In this document: in pieces, positions 24,690 through 34,389 of the stretch
How positions within the stretch are numbered: position 1 is the first letter of the stretch
How the letters are laid out: each line of letters begins with the position of its first letter
DNA from: Candidatus Poriferihabitaceae bacterium
GTDB taxonomy: Bacteria > Pseudomonadota > Gammaproteobacteria > Arenicellales > Poriferihabitantaceae
Reading direction: 5' to 3'
DNA: 64,000 nucleotides
NCBI GenBank assembly: GCA_965261915.1
Contig: CBDHDW010000013.1
Coordinates: 320,491 to 384,490 of the forward strand
The notes under the pieces: generated by a model
What the model was told of the DNA's origin: nothing
The model's input: only the letters and a program-made list of their open reading frames with translations
Database searches by the model: none
Made by a program: the position numbers and the translations under genes

Positions 24690-25030
24690 TTGGAAAAACT
24701 GCTTATTTGCGATGGGTCTTGCCCTGCCTGAAGACTATTTCAGACCATTAACCCACAAGCCAGCCAGCGTTTTGAATGTAAATTACTATCCCTAGTCAAC
24801 TGTATGCGGCATCGATGACTGCGGCATATCCTCGTACTAAAATCCATTCCATACAGGGCGGTTTTCCGTGCGCGACTTATCAGCGTTCACGAAAAAATCT
24901 TAATGAATAGAGATACCCTTAACAGTGGATTGTTGGGATGAACAGCCGAAGTCATTGGTGATGCCCCGTGTTTCTGGTATATTCTATGGGCATCCCGCCT
25001 CGAACAACATGGATATTGACCGCCCAGGCA
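24690..25030 (+). pseudogene. Decayed 2OG-Fe(II) oxygenase, middle and C-terminal part
   Basis: Family landmarks appear in the right order across shifted frames: AMGLALPEDYF...SVLNVNYYP*, then ..HR*LRHILVLK.., ILMNRDTLNSG, and PRVSGIFYGHP. There are several stops and frameshifts. Confidence 0.4.
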
Positions 25031-25040
25031 TAAACCAAAC

Positions 25041-26888
25041 ATGCAAAACCTATTGGAACAATTAAAAACCACGCTACAAAATGATGAGCGGCTGGTCGTC
25101 GATGGTAATTTGGTGAAAAATAAAATCGTTGAGCTGGCACTGGCGATGGATGCGGGATTGCTTGCCTTGTTGCTGGGTAATGAGACCATCAAAAAACAGT
25201 TTTTTAAGCAGGTCGGCGGTGTGCTGGTGTTTGACAAGGTGGCGTTGCAAAGTTTTGTCAGCAACAAACAGTTTCTGCCCGATAGCTATACCGCCTTCAA
25301 GAACAAAATCGGCTTAACGGCAAATGGCGAATATTTAACCGAAAGCCGAGAGGTGGTTTTAGCCTGGCCTTATAAAGATTGTACGCTGGAAGGCGGGCAG
25401 ACTAAAGAGGAGCAGAAACGCAAAGAGATATTCTGGAATGAAACGCTGGCAGCGGATGAGATTGACCGCTTGCTTGACCCGAAGGTATTAACCCATTTCA
25501 AAAAATACGATAAAGACGGCGCGCATAAAGCAGCGCATATCAGCCTTGATGATAACCTGATTATCAAGGGCAATAACCTGCTGGCACTGCATAGCCTGAA
25601 AAAGCAATATGCCGGCAAGGTCAAGCTGATTTATATTGATCCGCCTTATAATACCGGTTCAGATAGTTTTGGTTATAACGACAGTTTTAATCATTCTACC
25701 TGGTTGACTTTTATGCGGAATAGATTGGAAGTTTCAAGGGAATTATTGAGAGGTGATGGGGTTATTTTTGTTCAATGTGATGATAATGAACAGGCTTATC
25801 TGAAGGTGTTGATGGATGAGGTTTTTGGGCGGAAAAATTTTGTTGCGGATTTTATATGGCATCATAGAAAATCATCTCAAAACGATATAGATGTTTCTTT
25901 ATCACATAATTACACACTAACATTTGCAAAAAACAGAAAAAATTTTAAACTAAATATATTGGGAATTGATGGTAATAAATTTTCTAATTTAGATGATGAT
26001 CCCAGAGGCGATTGGGTTGCCGATCCTTTTGACGCACCAAATATTAGAAAAAATTTATCTTATGAGATTACCAACCCAAATACACATAAAATTTATTTAC
26101 CTCCAAAAGGTAGGTGTTGGCGTATGTCAAAAGATAAATACGAACATGCACTAAAAGATAATAGGATTATTTTTGGAAAATCTGGAAAAACAAAACCACA
26201 ATATAAGCGTTTTAAAGATGAAGCAGAAGAAAAAGGACGAAATGCTTATACTATTTGGAATGACACAGGCACAGCAACAGAAGGTACAAAAGAATTAATG
26301 AAGTTATTTGATGACAGAAAATTTACCACACCAAAACCTGAGAAACTTCTACAGAGAATAATAGAAATATCTACAAAAGAAAGCGACATCGTCCTAGACT
26401 ATCACTTAGGCAGTGGCACCACCTGTGCCGTAGCCCATAAAATGGGACGACGTTATATTGGTATTGAACAAATGGATTACATCCACGATGTGACCTGCGA
26501 ACGACTTAAAAAAGTTATTCAGGGCGAACAAGGCGGCATCAGTAAAAGCGTCAACTGGCAAGGTGGCGACTCCTTCACCTACTGCGAACTTGCCCAACAC
26601 AATGCTAATATCATCGATAAAATCGAACAAGCAAAAACGACTCAAGCCTTAACAGAAATCTGGCAAGAAATAGAAAATGCCGATTTTATCAGCTACAAAA
26701 TAAAACCCGAAGTCATCAATAAAAACATTCATGAATTTGCCGCCCTCTCCGTAGCAGAACAAAAACAATTCCTGATTGCCGTGCTGGATAAAAACCAGCT
26801 TTATGTTAATTATTCTGAAATTGATGATGTGGATTATCAAATATCGAATGAAGATAAAGCACTAAACAGGCAGTTTTATGGGGGTTAA
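25041..26888 (+). CDS. mod: Type III R-M DNA methyltransferase (Mod), N6-adenine beta class
   Basis: DPPY motif IV within LIYIDPPYNTGSD (nt 25638-25649), followed by an AT-rich variable TRD. Motif I is DYHLGSGTT. The N- and C-terminal regions are typical of Mod proteins. Confidence 0.92.
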   Translation: MQNLLEQLKTTLQNDERLVVDGNLVKNKIVELALAMDAGLLALLLGNETIKKQFFKQVGGVLVFDKVALQSFVSNKQFLPDSYTAFKNKIGLTANGEYLTESREVVLAWPYKDCTLEGGQTKEEQKRKEIFWNETLAADEIDRLLDPKVLTHFKKYDKDGAHKAAHISLDDNLIIKGNNLLALHSLKKQYAGKVKLIYIDPPYNTGSDSFGYNDSFNHSTWLTFMRNRLEVSRELLRGDGVIFVQCDDNEQAYLKVLMDEVFGRKNFVADFIWHHRKSSQNDIDVSLSHNYTLTFAKNRKNFKLNILGIDGNKFSNLDDDPRGDWVADPFDAPNIRKNLSYEITNPNTHKIYLPPKGRCWRMSKDKYEHALKDNRIIFGKSGKTKPQYKRFKDEAEEKGRNAYTIWNDTGTATEGTKELMKLFDDRKFTTPKPEKLLQRIIEISTKESDIVLDYHLGSGTTCAVAHKMGRRYIGIEQMDYIHDVTCERLKKVIQGEQGGISKSVNWQGGDSFTYCELAQHNANIIDKIEQAKTTQALTEIWQEIENADFISYKIKPEVINKNIHEFAALSVAEQKQFLIAVLDKNQLYVNYSEIDDVDYQISNEDKALNRQFYGG

Positions 26889-26889
26889 T

Positions 26890-28056
26890 ATGATCGAGAA
26901 AATAACAGACCTGCATTTTAAGGCAACAGATTTGGGGGTCATAAGAAGCGGTGAGTTTACGCAGAAACCTTTAACTATTTTCTGTGGACCCAATAATAGT
27001 GGTAAAACCTGGGCAATGTATTCGCTGTATCGCTTTTACCAGACTTCTGAAGCAGCTAGATGGCTGGATAAAGAAGGAAAAGAAAAAGTTTCTTTAGATA
27101 AATTTAACCGCAGAATGTCATCCAGCCTTGACCGTTTATTCAACACTTCGGTAGAAAGCATTCGTAATGCCAAATTTGAGCTTAAAATGGAGACTGCTGA
27201 TTGGGAAGAATTGCGCGAAAATAAACAGAATGATGTTTTCCTTATGCCGGCCGAACGTAATGGCTTGCATTTGTTTTTTCGTGAATTAAGTACTCGTCGC
27301 ACCGCGCTGTTACATCACGCATCTAAAGATAACATTGATATAAATGAACTGTTACGCGATGTTATCAGGTCACGCTACGCCGTTCCAATTGCAAAATATA
27401 TTGACTGGCTGAATAATATGACCGATGCACCAAAATCAAAATCAGCAGATTTTCACGATTATGCACAACAGTTACAAAAAACATTGGCAGGAGGCGTTTA
27501 TAAAATCGATTCCCGAACCGGGGATATCGCCTTTAAGCCCTATCAACGAAAACGTGACGGGGTTAAAACGGAAGCACTGGGCTTACATATCACTTCCAGC
27601 ACGGTTAAAAGTTTATTCGGATTGTGGTTTTATCTGGAGTATCAGGCGGAGAAGGGCGATGTCTTGATGATTGATGAACCCGAGCTAAATATACACCCGG
27701 AGAATCAACGTAAGATAGCGCGTTTATTAGCTCAACTGGTCAATGCGGGCTTAAATGTGGTGATTAGCACCCATAGCGATTATATGGTGCGCGAATTTAA
27801 TTCACTGATTATGCTTAGTCAGGATGAAGATAAAGTATTACGAGAAAAACACCAATACGCCGATAATGAAATACTAACCACCGCACAGGTCGGTGCCTAT
27901 CTATTTGATAAGCAGGAAATTAAACCTTTTGAAATAACAGCAGATGATGGCATTTATGCCACCACGTTTGATGAGGTAATTCGTAAGCTGAACGATACCA
28001 ACGATGACATCTATTACAGCCTGCAGGACAAGAAAGATGAATCAGAAGCTGGCTGA
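26890..28056 (+). CDS. ABC/AAA_15-21-type ATPase embedded between mod and res
   Basis: Walker A GPNNSGKT (26986-27009), Walker B VLMIDEPELNIHP (27661-), and H-loop VISTHSDY. ATG 26890 has GGGGG 5 nt upstream and lies 1 nt after the mod stop. Confidence 0.85.
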   Translation: MIEKITDLHFKATDLGVIRSGEFTQKPLTIFCGPNNSGKTWAMYSLYRFYQTSEAARWLDKEGKEKVSLDKFNRRMSSSLDRLFNTSVESIRNAKFELKMETADWEELRENKQNDVFLMPAERNGLHLFFRELSTRRTALLHHASKDNIDINELLRDVIRSRYAVPIAKYIDWLNNMTDAPKSKSADFHDYAQQLQKTLAGGVYKIDSRTGDIAFKPYQRKRDGVKTEALGLHITSSTVKSLFGLWFYLEYQAEKGDVLMIDEPELNIHPENQRKIARLLAQLVNAGLNVVISTHSDYMVREFNSLIMLSQDEDKVLREKHQYADNEILTTAQVGAYLFDKQEIKPFEITADDGIYATTFDEVIRKLNDTNDDIYYSLQDKKDESEAG

Positions 28057-28573
28057 ATTATTTCAACAAACCATTCATAAAACCCTGCAATTAAACAGAA
28101 AAGGCAGAGACTGGTCGCTCAATGAAGAGCCTACAATAAGAATAAAGGCACCCTGTCGATATTCACTTGGTTTTAGTCTGGACTGTGAACAATATGGTTC
28201 TCTTTTTGGAGGCAACGCACCATTAGATATTGCCAAAATGTGTGATGCGATTATTGTATTGTCCTGTAAAAACAAGGATTATATCTTTGTGATCGAACAA
28301 AAAACCAGATACAAAGATGGTTATAAAAAACAATTAGCCAACGGTAAATATTTTTGTGACTGGCTACTAGCGTTGCTAAAAGAACACAATCACTATAACG
28401 GAAAAGTCGTTTTTATTGGACTGCTGTGCTGGTTACCTCGGGAAAAGTCTTTGCGTAAAGGGGAGACTCGTCATGGAAACTATGTAGAAAAACAGAACAA
28501 CGAAACCCAGTGTGATTTGTTATTTGAGATAAGAAATGAAGCTCACATTTATCTGCAAAAGATCATCAAATGA
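28037..28573 (+). CDS. Small orphan protein with a PD-(D/E)xK-like signature
   Basis: 178 aa from ATG 28037. D70 sits in MCDAIIVL and E87-Q-K89 in YIFVIEQKT, followed by a long helix and a hydrophobic strand (VVFIGLLCW). It overlaps the ATPase stop by 20 nt and the res start by ATGA. Confidence 0.6.
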   Translation: MNQKLAELFQQTIHKTLQLNRKGRDWSLNEEPTIRIKAPCRYSLGFSLDCEQYGSLFGGNAPLDIAKMCDAIIVLSCKNKDYIFVIEQKTRYKDGYKKQLANGKYFCDWLLALLKEHNHYNGKVVFIGLLCWLPREKSLRKGETRHGNYVEKQNNETQCDLLFEIRNEAHIYLQKIIK

Positions 28574-31203
28574 CTGAACAAATGCTCCACGAAAAACTAA
28601 CCACTGGCGAAGAGTTTTTAGTTGGCAGTGATTATTATAAACAGCATATCCCCGATGGCATCGCCAGCAATCTCAATCCTGATTTTCTGTTGCGACCCTA
28701 CCAGATGGAAGCCTTGGGTCGTTTCAAGTATTACCTGGAGACTTATCCCGCGCGCCCGAAAAACGTGCCGACACAAACCTTGTTTCACATGGCAACGGGT
28801 AGCGGTAAAACGCTGATTATGGCGGGGCTGATGTTGTATTTATACAAGCAGGGCTATCGCAATTTTCTGTTTTTTGTCAATAGCACCAATATCATCAATA
28901 AAACCCGTGATAACTTCCTCAATAAGACGGCTACAAAACACCTGTTTGCGGAAGTGATACAAATCGATAACCAACCGATACACATTAAAGAAGTCGATAA
29001 TTTTCAGGCGGCGAATGCGAATGATATAAATATTGTTTTTTCAACCATTCAGGGCTTGCATACGCGTCTGAATACGCCGCGAGAAAACAGCATCACCTTT
29101 GATGACTTTGAAAGTGAAAAAATCGTTCTTATTTCTGACGAAGCGCATCACATTAATGTAGAGACGAGGCGGACTAACACGCTTAATCAAACAGAATTGT
29201 TTGCATTGAATACTTGGGAATCCACGGTTGAGAAGATATTCATCGCTAACGCTGAAAATATTCTGCTGGAATTTACCGCTACTATGGACTTAAACCATCA
29301 ACAAATTATTGAAAAATATCGCGATAAAATCATTTTTGACTATCCGCTCAAGGCGTTTCGGATGGATGGCTATTCCAAAGAAGTCAAGGTATTGCAATCG
29401 GACACCGAGGCGTTTGAGCGGGCTTTACAAGCCATTTTATTAAGCCAGTTCAGGCGGAAAATATTTGAAAAACACGGTTGGTTGATAAAACCAGTTATTT
29501 TATTCAAGTCAAAAACAATTAAGGAATCTAATGCCTTTTATGCTGAATTTATTTCCCGAATAAGGCACTTACAAGGACATGATCTTGAAAAAATTGCCGG
29601 CAATCCTAATCTGGATGCTGTTTTAGCCGGGGTGTTTCGCTATTTTGCAGCGCATAAAATTACGCTGGACAATCTGGCTTTGGAATTACAGGAAGAGTTT
29701 GCCGAAAACAAATGTATCTCGGTCAATTCCAAAGATGAATCAGTGCAGAAACAGATTGCAGTCAACACATTGGAAGACAGGGACAACGAATACCGTGCTA
29801 TTTTCGCGGTCGATAAACTGAACGAAGGCTGGGATGTGCTTAATCTGTTTGATATTGTGCGTTTATACGATACGCGCGATGGGAAATCCGGCAGGCCGGG
29901 CAAAACCACCTTGTCGGAGGCACAGTTAATCGGGCGCGGGGCGCGATATTGCCCGTTCAGGGTGGCCGATGACCAACCGCTTTATCAGCGTAAATATGAT
30001 GTTTTTAACAATGACAAAGAGCATAACTTAAAGCTATGCGAGGAGCTGTATTATCACAGTGCTTATAACCCACGCTATATTCAAGAATTACACACGGCTT
30101 TAGTAGAAATCGGCATTAAACAGAACAGTAGCCGTCAGTTAGAATTAACCCTAAAGCCAGCGTTCAAAGAGAAGTCGTTTTATAAGAAGGGCGTTATTCT
30201 CAAAAATGAACGGGTGAAATATGCACGCGAGGACGTAACGGGCATCCCCGCTTCATTTATTCAAACCACACATAAAATCCCATTGCCATCGGGTTATTCA
30301 CAATCGTCAACGGTATTTGCGTTTGAACCACAGCGACAGGGCAACCAAATACAGCAAGATTATTGCATTAAATCATTTGGCTGCCACGTTATAAAAAAGG
30401 CATTGTGCCGATTCCCCGAATACCGCTTGGCAAATCTAAAATGCCTGTTTCCACATTTGCCAAGCCTGTCAGAATTTATTGACTCTGATGACTATCTGGG
30501 AAGAGTCAAAGCCGAGGTTAGCGGCGATGAGGATGCCGTGAACAATCTAAGCCAAGCGAACAAGCTGTATATTGTTGTCTGTTTGCTGGATAGATTAAGC
30601 TGCCAATTACAGGCGGAAAAAGTGGACTATAAAGGCACGAAAGAATTTAAACCTTATCCAATCAAAGACACTTTCACCGATAAAACACTTAATGTTGTCA
30701 ATGATGGCAGTGCTGATAAAGAATATGGTATTGCACAAAGCCAAACAACGAATAAGAATTTAAATATGGATTTATCCGCTCAGGATTGGTTTGTATTTAA
30801 CGAGCACTACGGAACTTCTGAGGAAAAGTATCTGGTCAAATATATTGAAAAGATAGTGCATCGATTAAAGCAAACCTATTCAGAGGTTTATTTGCTACGC
30901 AATGAGCGCCATTTCAAACTGTTCAATTTTGATGACGGACGTGCGTTTGAGCCCGATTTTGTGCTGTGTTTAATCAAGAATAATAAAACCCCTGCCCAGC
31001 ATTACCAAATAATTATTGAGCCAAAAGGTAGCCATTTAATCGAGCATGATCAATGGAAGCAAGATTTTTTATTGCAGTTAAAAGATGGGCATAAGATCGA
31101 ACAGTTATGGAAAGATAGAAACCACATAGTTTGGGGTATGCCGTTTTATAATGAAACAGAAACCAAAGCCGAGTTTGAGAAAGAGTTTGCTACTTTGGTT
31201 TAA
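28570..31203 (+). CDS. res: Type III restriction enzyme Res subunit (helicase plus C-terminal endonuclease)
   Basis: ATGSGKTLIMAG (motif I), LISDEAHH (DEAH), and later helicase motifs (QLIGRGAR). The C-terminal nuclease motif is FEPDFVL...IIIEPKG. Confidence 0.92.
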   Translation: MTEQMLHEKLTTGEEFLVGSDYYKQHIPDGIASNLNPDFLLRPYQMEALGRFKYYLETYPARPKNVPTQTLFHMATGSGKTLIMAGLMLYLYKQGYRNFLFFVNSTNIINKTRDNFLNKTATKHLFAEVIQIDNQPIHIKEVDNFQAANANDINIVFSTIQGLHTRLNTPRENSITFDDFESEKIVLISDEAHHINVETRRTNTLNQTELFALNTWESTVEKIFIANAENILLEFTATMDLNHQQIIEKYRDKIIFDYPLKAFRMDGYSKEVKVLQSDTEAFERALQAILLSQFRRKIFEKHGWLIKPVILFKSKTIKESNAFYAEFISRIRHLQGHDLEKIAGNPNLDAVLAGVFRYFAAHKITLDNLALELQEEFAENKCISVNSKDESVQKQIAVNTLEDRDNEYRAIFAVDKLNEGWDVLNLFDIVRLYDTRDGKSGRPGKTTLSEAQLIGRGARYCPFRVADDQPLYQRKYDVFNNDKEHNLKLCEELYYHSAYNPRYIQELHTALVEIGIKQNSSRQLELTLKPAFKEKSFYKKGVILKNERVKYAREDVTGIPASFIQTTHKIPLPSGYSQSSTVFAFEPQRQGNQIQQDYCIKSFGCHVIKKALCRFPEYRLANLKCLFPHLPSLSEFIDSDDYLGRVKAEVSGDEDAVNNLSQANKLYIVVCLLDRLSCQLQAEKVDYKGTKEFKPYPIKDTFTDKTLNVVNDGSADKEYGIAQSQTTNKNLNMDLSAQDWFVFNEHYGTSEEKYLVKYIEKIVHRLKQTYSEVYLLRNERHFKLFNFDDGRAFEPDFVLCLIKNNKTPAQHYQIIIEPKGSHLIEHDQWKQDFLLQLKDGHKIEQLWKDRNHIVWGMPFYNETETKAEFEKEFATLV

Positions 31204-31210
31204 GGTGGAA

Positions 31211-31270
31211 CCTTTGCACAGTCTGAGATTTTGTTTGCTAGAGCAGGGAAAGTCACACGGGAATGACGGG
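31211..31270. repeat. REP-like family member (ttgcacagtct ... gggaatgacg)
   Basis: tttgcacagtctgag...cacacgggaatgacggg shares both sub-motifs with 39737-39768 (cttgcacagtctcttccgcaggaatgacgaatg). Confidence 0.6.
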
Positions 31271-31296
31271 TTGGAACGATACGCCCTTTTCTGAGA

Positions 31297-31441
31297 ATGT
31301 TTATTAATGGCACAGGTGAAAACCGGAAATGCATTGCAAACCAAACAATTCAGGCCTGTGAAAATGACGGTTTCTTTTATATTGCTAATCATGGGATCGA
31401 GGAAGAATTGTTTGTCCAGAGGCGTAATTCAGCACTGTCAT
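31297..31441 (+). pseudogene. 2OG-Fe(II) oxygenase N-terminal fragment, cut by the IS1634-family element
   Basis: IANQTIQACENDGFFYIANHGIEEELF is the DIOX_N-type signature (..AC...GFFY..NHGI). Homology stops at the IS terminal repeat at 31442. Confidence 0.6.
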
Positions 31442-31541
31442 TCCTGACTTCGACGGTTCACACTCATAACTCATTGATTTATAAGGAAACACAAAAATAC
31501 CTAGGCACTACAAATGCCCAGATATTGAAGAATTATGTCAA

Positions 31542-32609
31542 TTAGTACAGTGGGTAAGCTGTGGTAATCGCTTTTAATCCCATCACAGCATAGATTTTTT
31601 TTGCCTCTGGATTGATTTGAGAAGGCATGACATAACGCTGTTTGGTGCGCTTGTGTTTGAACACGCTATGTTGCACATGAATCAAGGCATTACGAATAAC
31701 TTCAGGGGATAAGGCTTTGTGTTGTAGCTTGATTCGATACATTAGCTGTCTGATGCAGGCAAAAGCCATGAACGAAATAGCAATGTGGGCACGCACCCTG
31801 GAAGGTGTCCAGTGGTAGATAGGGCGTACTTTTAAGTCATGTTTAGTGATGCGGAAACTTTCTTCAACCTGCCATAAGCCGCGATAGTGTGATAGCACTT
31901 CCTGATGCGGCGTATCTGGCAAATTGGTGATGACCCCATGCAAGCCGTCCCAGCGGCTTTCGGCATCAATTTTATCCTGGTTGATACTCAGGCTGGTTTT
32001 TCCTTTGATAATCAGAAACTTTTTATAGCCGTAGTTATTTAATAAGTCCTTGGGATTCTGGCTTTTACCTATTTTCTTGATGAGCCGATCGACTGCCTTT
32101 TGTCGGTCATGTTGATCTTTATCCGCACGCTTTGGACAATGCGAGACAATGAGCCGTCTCTTCTTGTGCGTCAGCTCGGCTGCGCTTGACCCGCCTTTGC
32201 CAAGTGCCTGATAAGCTGATTTATCCAATACTTTGGTTTGTAGTGCACTTGGTAATTGTTTTAGTTTCGCTCCGACAATGTAATAAGCGCCCGCCTCATC
32301 CAGGGCGCTTAGATTGTCTTCATTCAACATGCCCCGATCAGCGACAAAGATCATTTTCCTAACATCATAGCGCGCTTGCATCGTCTGCAAAACGCTGATT
32401 AGGCTATGACCCTCGAAAGTAGCACCGGGAAACACTTCGTAGCCGACCGGCAGACCTTCGCGGGTGACCAGCAAAGCCAGCAATACTTGCGGCTGATTGA
32501 CCTGTGTCTGATTAACTTGACAGTCCTTGCTGTAGCCATTTTGTTTTAATTCGTCTTCCTTGAAAGACTCAAAATACAGTGTCGTACAGTCAAAGAACAA
32601 CACATCTAA
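31542..32609 (-). pseudogene. IS1634-family transposase, C-terminal part (interrupted)
   Basis: DVLFFDCTTLYFESFKEDEL... carries the DDE region. The first 13 codons of the ORF-track ORF (32610-32648) are IS630 terminal sequence. Confidence 0.85.
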
Positions 32610-33768
32610 TACCAACGGCCCAAGGATTTGACACTTTGTGCTTTCCACGGGGAATTTGAAGTGATTCAGTAGTTATCATCATAGGAGGTATTGATGACAG
32701 TAGAGATTATGCGAACGGACAAGTCGGCCTGCGATCTTCGGCGCGCCGCAGCGGCGTGCAGGGACGCGAAAGCGGCCCGACGGATGCTGGCGATTGCGTT
32801 GATTTTGGACGGCACTGACCGCAAGACGGCGGCCGAGAACTGCGGGATGGATCGCCAGACGTTGCGTGACTGGGTACACCGTTACAATGACACGGGGATT
32901 GAGGGTCTCTCGAACCGGCGTTCGCCAGGACGACAGCCCCTGCTCAGCGTGGCACAGAAGGCGGAGTTGGCATCGCTTGTGCGTGAGAGGCCGGATCCCG
33001 AAACGGACGGCGTGGTGCGCTGGCGGCGCATTGACCTCAAGCGCAAGATTGAGGAGCGCTTTGGCGTTGTCATGCATGAACGGACCGTTGGCAAACAACT
33101 GGTAAAACTTGGTTTTCGACGCTTGTCTGTGCGCCCGCAGCATCCGAAATCCGACCCGGATGCGCAGGATGCGTTTAAAAAAACTTCGCTGCAGAGGTAG
33201 CGGCCGTTCTGCCCAAAACGGCCTGCGGCAAACCATTGGAGATTTGGTTTCAGGACGAAGCTCGTGTGGGTCAGCAAGGGACGCTGACACGTATATGGGC
33301 CGAACGGGGAACCCGGCCGCGTGCGCCGCGTGATACACGTTATACGTCGGGCTATATCTTCGGCGCGGTTTGTCCCGAACGCGCCGAGGCTGCTGCGCTG
33401 ATCATGCCGCATGCGGACACGTCCGCTATGAATGCACATCTGTGCGAGATCGCCAGGACGGTCGCGGCAGGTGCCCATGCCTTGCTCATCCTCGACGGTG
33501 CAGGCTGGCACGGATCAGCAAAACTGGAAGTGCCAGACAACATCACCCTGCTCAAACTCCCGCCCTATGCGCCAGAACTCAATCCGATGGAAAACGTTTG
33601 GGCCTACCTGCGCGCCAACAAGCTGGCAATCTCTGTGTTTGAATCCTACGATGAGATCGTCGACAAATGCTGCGATGCCTGGAATTTCTTCGCAGAGGAC
33701 AAACAGGCAATCGCATCAATCACATCACGTAATTGGGCCAAAACAGTCAATCAATAGAGCCGTTGGTA
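32610..33768 (+). mobile_element. IS630-family element (1159 bp)
   Basis: Terminal inverted repeats are TACCAACGGC (32610-32619) and GCCGTTGGTA (33759-33768), flanked by TAA/TAA (32607-32609, 33769-33771). It is markedly more GC-rich than its surroundings. Confidence 0.85.
32691..33757 (+). CDS. IS630-family transposase, two frames joined by a probable -1 frameshift
   Basis: orfA (HTH: DGTDRKTAAENCGMDRQTLRDWVHRYN) ends at 33200. orfB (IWFQDEARVGQQG...LPPYAPELNPMENVW, DDE) is in the -1 frame. An A7 run at 33177-33183 is a candidate slippery site. Confidence 0.8.
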
Positions 33769-34389
33769 TAAGGCACCAGATAACAATGATCGCGTACCTT
33801 CACAGGTCATCGCTTGCAGCCGACTGATGGTGTTATCGTCCAGCTGATCCATCATCCGATAAACTTTCTCTAAGGACAAAGAAACGCCAAAGTCCTGCTC
33901 CAGGTGCTGCACACTGCTACGCTTGCGCTTGCTTTGCTCTGGGGGATTGGCAATGCGTGCCATTACACAATGGAACAGGGCTTCATGGGAAGCACGATAC
34001 CGCCTCTGCGGCAACAGGGTATCGAACGACAACTGGCGATAGACCGCGCCATACACCTCATGGATGCCCAGCACCACACGTTGTTCTTCCACCATCTGCC
34101 TCAGATCAACATTCAAGGTGGCTTTAGACGCTTGAGCTTTTGCGGCTTTCGCTTCAATCATCTGTTTGGCGACCGCCTCAGGCGGAAACAAACCGGGCTG
34201 GTGTTGGGCTTCAAGCTTCGCCTTGACGACTTCGGCCAGCTCTTTCAATCGCACTAACTCATCGTCATCCATGGCAATGCCGATATAACGGACAATCTTT
34301 TGCTTGACCTTATCGCCGACGCGCACAGATGAGACAATCTGAACCGATTGTCTTGGGCTATTGGGTGTCGATTTAACGCGAACAAACAT
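33769..34389 (-). pseudogene. IS1634-family transposase, N-terminal part (interrupted)
   Basis: Joining ...SLLSGA + L (tta) to DVLFFDC... at 32609 restores one ~561-aa frame. Confidence 0.85.

Follow-up and report, generated by a model that had tools for sequence, protein, structure and literature searches.

A predicted PD-(D/E)xK nuclease of the PD-T4-4 kind, paired with an OLD-type ABC ATPase, inside a Type III restriction operon

Introduction

What is the role of a small gene lodged between the methyltransferase and the helicase-nuclease genes of a Type III restriction operon? The question is raised by a stretch of 64,000 nucleotides (nt) from Candidatus Poriferihabitaceae bacterium (assembly GCA_965261915.1, contig CBDHDW010000013.1, positions 320,491 to 384,490), referred to here as the window. 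A gene coding for a protein of 178 amino acids (aa), here called the effector, and an ATPase gene are found there between mod and res. A sequence-only reading of this DNA had described the protein as an orphan of no recognized family, with a candidate PD-(D/E)xK nuclease core, and as a second nuclease of the operon. Our results indicate that the effector is probably the nuclease subunit of a two-gene anti-phage module of the PD-T4-4/WonAB kind, together with the OLD-type ABC ATPase encoded upstream. The module would act as a second, independent defense layer inside the restriction operon, and not as a subunit of the restriction enzyme.

Family assignment of the effector

The open reading frame (ORF) was found as claimed, and its translation is the 178-aa protein quoted in the sequence-only reading. 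The term orphan, in contrast, does not apply to it. A search of 5.8 billion proteins returned 73 homolog clusters of 124-208 aa, distributed over many phyla. A profile search of 1.84 billion representatives returned 456 clusters, defined at 50% identity, with an expectation value (E) <=0.001, of which 143 were at E<=1e-10. Because of the 73 homolog clusters and a ratio of nonsynonymous to synonymous substitutions (dN/dS) of 0.31-0.39 against the closest relatives, the ORF is judged to be a real gene.

No Pfam or NCBIfam model matched the effector, even at E<=10, which explains why no family had been recognized. That observation is correct for these two databases, but not for PADLOC, where the effector matches the PD-T4-4_B models PDLC04037 (E 5.9e-10, spanning residues 43-168 of the 189-aa translation from 28004), PDLC04034 (E 9e-6) and PDLC04035 (E 1e-4). 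The modest score is supported by transitivity, since 95 of the 97 relatives gathered with the effector's own profile match PDLC04037, the best of them at E 3e-83. Furthermore, a profile of close homologs was aligned by hhalign with the PD-T4-4_B protein of a 4.8-kilobase (kb) E. coli plasmid (probability 91.6%, E 8e-7), with the KxCD, (D/E)xK and Q motifs aligned. This plasmid protein itself matches PDLC04035 at E 1e-43 and shares 16% identity with the effector in the broad alignment of 97 sequences. The broader effector profile also aligns with a homolog from a P2-like Vibrio phage (probability 95%).

The plasmid and phage relatives were reached with the ATPase protein as query, while searches of E. 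coli genomes with the operon DNA and of plasmids with the effector protein found nothing. A metagenome scan with the close-homolog alignment gave seven loci, six of them short. No sequence-profile link to a curated PD-(D/E)xK family was found in Pfam, NCBIfam or the PDB sequences: the close (60 sequences) and broad (97) profiles gave only chance matches in the PDB sequence search (a Kazal inhibitor and ribosomal protein bL36). Among the 97 relatives there are isolated weak matches to HSDR_N_2 (four sequences, E at least 0.036), PDDEXK_15 (one, E 9.5e-4) and Hjc (0.14).

Judged by these profile matches, the effector is a divergent PD-T4-4_B protein, neither an orphan nor without a family. It belongs to a known, experimentally validated defense family whose PD-(D/E)xK nature has already been published.

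Catalytic motif and predicted fold

Three residues, D70, E87 and K89, had been proposed as the nuclease core, and they are present at the positions given, with D70 and E87 17 residues apart. The homologs were aligned, a check that the sequence-only reading had suggested, and the three residues are invariant among 60 close homologs, together with K67, Q99, N102, G103, W109 and L130. The broad alignment of 97 relatives averages 19% identity per column and includes members with as little as about 16% identity to the effector. There, D70 and Q99 are still invariant, position 87 is always acidic (E in 80 sequences and D in 17) and K89 is kept in all sequences except one. These four are the most conserved residues of the whole family. 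The same pattern is visible in the E. coli homolog (KSCD...LDLKS...QIEN) and in the Vibrio-phage homolog (RCDF...GDLKS...KQLS). Such conservation is far beyond chance, and the core inference that D70, E87 and K89 are the catalytic triad of a PD-(D/E)xK-type nuclease holds in the alignments. The predicted enzyme would use these residues together with Q99 and possibly D49.

The AlphaFold2 model, made with the 60-sequence alignment, has a predicted local distance difference test score (pLDDT) of 87.5 and a predicted template modeling score (pTM) of 0.85. It contains a helix (residues 4-12), short strands up to 43-46, two strands (71-77 and 80-89), a helix (96-116), a further strand (124-132) and a small C-terminal sheet. 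This is the beta-beta-beta-alpha-beta core order of the restriction-endonuclease-like fold that had been read from the sequence, and the long helix noted then (KKQLANG...KEH) corresponds to 96-116. In the model, D70 immediately precedes strand 71-77, E87-x-K89 ends strand 80-89 and Q99 is near the start of the long helix.

Structure prediction followed by a Foldseek search had also been suggested. The prediction gave the expected order of elements, but the search gave no significant structural match, the best E against the PDB being 0.05. The weak PDB matches include FokI (probability 0.75), BamHI, DdmD, McrC, BstEII, Bse634I, Nt.BspD6I, XisH, FAN1 and Avs3, mixed with gelsolin and thymidylate-synthase-like folds. 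We take roughly twenty of the top fifty weak matches to be PD-(D/E)xK enzymes. Against viral models, weak matches included UL24, MmcB-like, VRR-NUC and Mrr-like proteins. Because the fold searches gave only sub-significant matches, many of them to PD-(D/E)xK enzymes, the predicted PD-(D/E)xK fold is well supported but not demonstrated. PD-T4-4_B and WonB have both been described as PD-(D/E)xK variants (PMC10952713; 10.1101/2025.07.10.664194; PMC12137116, Extended Data Fig. 4e).

A protein with a nuclease-like fold that is not catalytic, for instance a nucleic-acid-binding or adaptor subunit, would agree with the lack of a significant Foldseek match to an active nuclease and with the report that purified EcPD-T4-4 does not cleave DNA in vitro (10.1101/2025.07.10.664194). 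It seems most improbable, as D, (D/E)xK and Q are invariant at 19% mean column identity, which is an active-site signature, and the motif lysine is essential in WonB (PMC12137116). The earlier nuclease prediction is thus sustained by the invariant motif, the order of secondary-structure elements and the published class of the family, while its fold is not proven and both the orphan status and the proposed role need correction.

The ATPase partner and the autonomy of the pair

The protein encoded directly upstream matches PADLOC PD-T4-4_A at E 3.8e-99 and, weakly, the AriA, GajA, PtuA and Old models. Its ABC motifs are all present: Walker A GPNNSGKT, PAER, Walker B LMIDEPE and the H-loop STHS. 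One genome per species was scanned, giving 34 loci, which are cited below by L numbers. In 33 of them an ATPase homolog with 46-95% identity ends at the start of the small gene or overlaps it; the small gene of the exception, L033, is present as a C-terminal fragment only. More distant pairs of the family were found in a toxin-antitoxin-rich, integron-like array of Vibrio, beside a Shedu-like gene, beside a PLD-helicase, on the ColE1-type 4.8-kb plasmid of E. coli, between the repressor and the integrase of a P2-like phage, and among metabolic genes. Since the ATPase lies directly upstream in 33 of the 34 loci, with or without a restriction system, the pair is considered an autonomous module. 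The conserved functional unit is predicted to be the ATPase with the small nuclease, and not Res with the small nuclease.

Res does carry the PD-ExK motif reported earlier (FEPDFVL...IIIEPKG), and a second nuclease motif indeed stands beside it in the operon. The second nuclease is, however, better read as the effector of a separate ATPase-nuclease module than as a nuclease of the restriction enzyme, because the pair is kept in 33 of the 34 loci and Mod and Res flank only some of them. An accessory DNA-cleaving subunit of the Type III enzyme, as the sequence-only reading had implied, would suit the position between mod and res with overlapping frames, as well as the restriction-endonuclease-like motif. 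This is highly unlikely, given that Res retains its own intact PD...ExK domain, that the conserved partner is the ATPase and not Mod or Res, and that relatives on the 4.8-kb plasmid, in the P2-like phage, in integron-like arrays and in metabolic surroundings have no restriction system nearby. The C-terminal endonuclease domain of Res resembles the effector in having its D and ExK motifs in register. It differs in being fused to a helicase, whereas the effector stands alone as a protein and has an ABC ATPase as its partner. In profile-profile alignments with the Res nuclease domains of these loci, D70 falls on PD and E87-x-K89 on ExK; homology between the two was not counted, as the probability was 0.8%.

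Most relatives share the ATPase length of the window, 392 aa; in L004, L005, L008 and the canonical PD-T4-4_A it is about 458-460 aa, the difference being located after the Walker A region (Insert 1). In the ATPase gene of L001 (L001:8842-10020), codon 337 is an inactivating in-frame TAG in place of the CAG of the window. In L032 a gene for an insertion sequence (IS) transposase of 379 aa, lying on the opposite strand, interrupts the nuclease gene (L032:10001-11709) directly behind Q99-L100. Two to three pairs stand in tandem in L023 (L023:6905-10558) and L031 (L031:53-4781), where the nuclease copies are similarly diverged, with 33-37% identity to that of the window.

Inactivated copies such as those of L001 and L032 are expected of costly genes, and they could suggest a classical toxin-antitoxin module in which a small toxin is held by stoichiometric binding to an ATPase antitoxin. 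Pfam labels AAA_21 as 'putative AbiEii toxin, Type IV TA system', and overproduced WonB is toxic (PMC12137116). However, this toxicity requires WonA and its ATPase activity, which rules out simple sequestration (PMC12137116), and we give a toxin-antitoxin module of this type very little credence.

Published relatives and proposed mechanism

PD-T4-4 was isolated as a system that protects E. coli, and its two genes work alone; phage resistance from the two genes as a unit has been demonstrated for this E. coli prototype only (PMC9519451). It has been classed as a PD-(D/E)xK nuclease with a P-loop NTPase, which form complexes (10.1101/2025.07.10.664194; PMC10952713); purified EcPD-T4-4 forms higher-order complexes (10.1101/2025.07.10.664194). 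The window pair resembles it in having two overlapping genes, for an OLD-type ABC ATPase and then for a protein of about 180-200 aa with KxCD...(D/E)xK...Q. The window ATPase is about 70 residues shorter (392 versus about 460 aa), with the gap after Walker A. The settings are also different: the E. coli system is in an element resembling an integrative and conjugative element (PMC9519451), whereas the window pair is in a Type III operon of a marine or sponge-associated bacterium.

WonAB, from the WASA-1 prophage of Vibrio cholerae, also combines an OLD-ABC ATPase with a small variant PD-(D/E)xK nuclease. The spacing from the Walker B Glu to the H-loop His is 32 residues in the window ATPase and 33 in WonA (E300, H333). 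WonB differs from the effector in size (16.1 kDa versus about 20.5 kDa) and in the position of its lysine (71 versus 89), and WonAB is carried by a prophage and is not embedded in a restriction-modification system. The published wonB quantitative PCR primer sequence was not found in viral_contigs. Both won genes are needed for defense, which is lost on mutation of the Walker A, Walker B or H-loop motif of the ATPase and on the K71A change in the nuclease; the K71A mutant loses its toxicity as well, and overproduced WonB is toxic only alongside active WonA ATPase (PMC12137116). In cells with WonAB translation is arrested and genomic DNA remains intact, and the authors therefore proposed that rRNA or tRNA is attacked and that the infection is aborted (PMC12137116).

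By analogy, an ATPase dimer would hold the nuclease and sense a cue of phage infection, and it would license the nuclease in an ATP-dependent manner. The licensed nuclease would then cut host or phage nucleic acid, and the infection would be aborted. The substrate would more likely be RNA of the translation apparatus than bulk DNA.

Several points weigh against the assignment of the effector to a PD-T4-4/WonAB-like module. First, the match to PD-T4-4_B is modest, at 37 bits, which places the effector in a distant clade of that family. Second, nuclease activity has been demonstrated for no PD-T4-4 system, and EcPD-T4-4 cut none of the 11 DNA substrates tried (10.1101/2025.07.10.664194). Third, the kinship with WonB (AWB73976.1) comes from its authors' relating WonAB to PD-T4-4 (PMC12137116) and not from a direct alignment. 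Fourth, although the motifs fall in register with those of the Res nuclease domain, the alignment is statistically unsupported, at a probability of 0.8%. Finally, the recurrent nesting in Type III operons, described below, could mean that the pair is not fully independent of the restriction enzyme.

Nesting in Type III restriction operons

The pair was found between res and mod in 10 of the 33 pair-carrying loci, in addition to the window. The order Mod-ATPase-nuclease-Res is present in the window, L001, L002 and L008. The order Res-ATPase-nuclease-Mod belongs to a second, unrelated Type III lineage (L009, L012, L018, L020, L023 and L034, with L021 followed up to the contig end), in which Res has ResIII and RE_endonuc domains in about 1020 aa and Mod matches PADLOC MTase_III at E 0. 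In a rough neighbor-joining tree of the ATPases, the Mod-first arrangement forms one clade and the Res-first arrangement is scattered, including basal branches. In L017 the module is followed closely by mod and res. Mod and Res are not obligate companions, as many of the 33 loci lack Type III genes over 8-10 kb, and L003 and L016 keep the module beside remnants of restriction genes.

Other cassettes occupy the same slot between nuclease and Mod. L018 has there a HEAT-repeat protein of 1527 aa, similar to PDC-M54A (L018:10749-15329), and L034 has a second ABC ATPase, similar to NsnB, PDC-M55A and HEC-03B (L034:10674-12014). Downstream in the Type III locus of L009 there is an IetA-like AAA ATPase (L009:13364-14350). 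The remnant upstream of the intact pair in L016 is a fusion (L016:7330-8520) of the first ~100 residues of a Res-like protein and the last ~290 of a Mod-like protein; in that locus the restriction system has been deleted and the nested module retained. Additional mod genes were detected in L002, where two stand in tandem upstream of the ATPase (L002:5123-8849), and in L008, with one on each side in the order Mod-ATPase-nuclease-Res-Mod (L008:6666-15119).

This distribution bears on another explanation, in which the nested pair is a guard coupled to the Type III enzyme, as in PrrC/EcoprrI or PARIS. The ATPase would monitor Mod and Res or sense phage anti-restriction proteins, and the nuclease would be released only when restriction is blocked. 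Such a guard would fit several observations: two different Type III lineages, one with each gene order, carry the pair between their res and mod genes; nested copies are spread over the ATPase tree, basal branches included; and all four genes of the window overlap. There are precedents: PrrC, encoded within a Type IC locus, is set off when the restriction enzyme is inhibited (PMC12707154), and in PARIS an anti-restriction protein is sensed by the ABC ATPase AriA (PMC11464382). The guard is nevertheless unlikely, though worth weighing. About half of the related loci carry the pair without any Type III genes, L003 and L016 keep it although their restriction genes are remnants, and cloned PD-T4-4 and WonAB are active on their own (PMC9519451; PMC12137116). 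The unrelated cassettes of L018 and L034 fit an insertion hotspot equally well. We likewise find it doubtful that this module clade is a dedicated guard of Type III enzymes, co-transcribed within the mod-res operon and firing abortive RNA or DNA cutting when restriction is disabled.

PrrC and RloC, anticodon nucleases of Type I restriction loci, resemble the window pair in combining an ABC-type ATPase with a nuclease inside a restriction-modification operon, as a second line that stops translation (PMC12707154). PrrC, however, consists of one polypeptide, has another nuclease domain and belongs to Type IC systems, and dependence on the host restriction enzyme has been demonstrated for PrrC only. 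PARIS (AriA/AriB), Gabija and other OLD-family systems also join an ABC ATPase sensor to a nuclease effector; their effectors are Toprim or HNH, not PD-(D/E)xK, and the ATPase inserts differ. Defense genes embedded in Hma, BREX, DISARM and Type I systems are documented in passages of a 'guilt-by-embedding' survey, and these passages make no mention of Type III systems (10.1101/2024.01.29.577857); among embedded defense genes PrrC is the classic case with a known function (10.1101/2024.01.29.577857; PMC12707154). The literature searched gave no account of PD-T4-4 placed within a Type III system.

Operon layout

The two-gene module of the window lies in a tight block of four genes on a single strand, mod, ATPase, effector and res (Table 1). 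Consecutive genes overlap by 11 nt (mod/ATPase), 20 nt (ATPase/effector) and 4 nt (effector/res, ATGA). Because the pair sits in an operon with overlapping stop and start codons, all four genes are presumably co-transcribed. A scan for internal promoters and terminators gave no more than chance expectation. The start of the effector gene at 28037 is favored by an AGGA placed 8 nt 5' of it, by an identical 178-aa database protein and by homologs that begin at the same residue. An in-frame ATG at 28004, which would give 189 aa, was rejected, as it has no ribosome-binding site and both the homologs and the identical database protein start at 28037.

Table 1. Positions of the genes, motifs and recombining segments discussed in the text, numbered from the first nucleotide of the window
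Feature	Position	Strand	Evidence
Type III Mod methyltransferase, 615 aa	25041..26888	+	Pfam N6_N4_Mtase + TypeIII_RM_meth; PADLOC MTase_III E 1e-193
OLD-type ABC ATPase, 392 aa, PD-T4-4_A-like; partner, presumed sensor/activator	26878..28056	+	PADLOC; Pfam AAA_15 + AAA_21; translation
Effector gene, 178 aa, divergent PD-T4-4_B-family protein, predicted PD-(D/E)xK nuclease	28037..28573	+	translation; PADLOC; AlphaFold2
Type III Res helicase-nuclease, 877 aa, own C-terminal PD...ExK	28570..31203	+	Pfam ResIII; PADLOC REase_III E 5.5e-140
Shine-Dalgarno-like AGGA, 8 nt 5' of ATG 28037, within 3' end of ATPase gene	28025..28028	+	read from sequence
Codon D49, FSLD motif, candidate extra acidic active-site residue (inferred role)	28181..28183	+	D 87/97, E 9/97
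Codon D70, first acidic residue of core motif, N-terminal end of strand 71-77	28244..28246	+	invariant 60/60, 97/97
Codons E87-Q88-K89, (D/E)xK at end of strand 80-89 (E87 28295-28297, K89 28301-28303)	28295..28303	+	E/D 97/97, K 96/97
Codon Q99, start of long helix 96-116	28331..28333	+	invariant 97/97
Variable module 1 of effector, ~aa 33-62, exchanged by recombination	28133..28222	+	76% nucleotide identity vs 95-100% in flanks
Variable module 2 of effector, aa 113-178, identical to L001, strongly diverged from L002	28373..28570	+	identity, dS
Low-GC mobile island: leader, mod, ATPase, effector, res	24839..31288	+	blastn vs L001, L002; GC

Mosaic effector and mobile island

The four genes belong to an island with a guanine-plus-cytosine (GC) content of 0.36-0.43, versus 0.46-0.57 in the flanks. 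By blastn the island has about 95% nucleotide identity to loci of metagenome-assembled genomes (MAGs) labeled Pseudohongiella (L001) and Candidatus Spongiihabitans (L002), while the flanks are unrelated. An IS transposase gene (DDE_Tnp_1) is located just downstream, at 31542-32648 on the minus strand. Between island and transposase, at 31297-31545, an ORF of 82 aa encodes a dioxygenase (DIOX_N) fragment, and this fragment abutting the transposase is probably the scar of an insertion event. After the IS, at 32500-34000 of the window, the GC content is 0.55-0.57, against 0.40 in the restriction island, and many overlapping ORFs are present on both strands.

Many of the genomes that carry the clade are apparently sponge-associated, among them Poribacteria, Porifericomitales, Spongiihabitans, Dadabacteria and Thioalkalivibrio sp. 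HK1, plus many Dehalococcoidia and Thermodesulfobacteriota MAGs, which in the locus set come from the same submitter. The occurrence of near-identical islands in different taxa suggests recent horizontal transfer within a sponge-associated community.

Within this island the effector is a mosaic. In 100-nt windows compared with L002, the ATPase and Res genes are mostly 91-100% identical (87% at the 5' end of the ATPase gene), and parts of the small gene fall to 56-76%. Synonymous divergence (dS) from L002 is 0.05-0.13 in the ATPase and Res genes and 1.3-1.5 in the divergent blocks of the effector that were tested (alignment columns 46-65 and 113-180). In module 1 (columns 46-65) dN is 0.37 and dS 1.53; module 2 has 56-70% nucleotide identity and dS 1.33 against L002, versus dS 0 against L001. 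L001 has its C-terminal module in common with the window and its N-terminal module in common with L002; aa 66-112, the catalytic core, are conserved in all the operons compared. In the divergent segments dS increases along with dN. These segments were therefore replaced by recombination, and positive selection as an explanation for the rapid divergence of the effector was rejected on this ground.

The 5' part of the operon is variable as well. Inside mod, positions 25844-26378 of the window show no nucleotide similarity to the L001 operon, which is otherwise 95% identical. The target-recognition region in the center of Mod seems to have been exchanged there, and the specificity of methylation and restriction would then differ. 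On a metagenome contig with a gene for the identical 178-aa protein (L037), an N6_N4 methylase of 378 aa stands upstream of the ATPase (L037:3716-4852) instead of the 615-aa Mod, and the genes further upstream also differ from those of the window; this layout is another sign of a variable 5' part.

Implications

Apart from the nesting in two Type III lineages and the mosaic effector, the findings amount to a routine family assignment, and neither of these two features alters the overall picture of ABC-ATPase/nuclease defense systems. The surface modules swapped in operons that are otherwise 95-100% identical mark the parts of the protein under conflict. If the pair were a guard, an arms race with phage triggers or inhibitors would account for the recombining modules (aa 33-62 and 113-178), and a guard logic like that of PrrC, so far established only for Type I systems, would extend to Type III enzymes. 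Ordinary annotation pipelines will also miss the PD-T4-4_B family, because Pfam and NCBIfam miss it as a whole. With the assignment made here, an unannotated 'hypothetical protein' becomes an identifiable defense effector, and the four-gene operon offers a concrete, clonable test of whether a nested abortive module may cooperate with, or guard, a Type III restriction enzyme.

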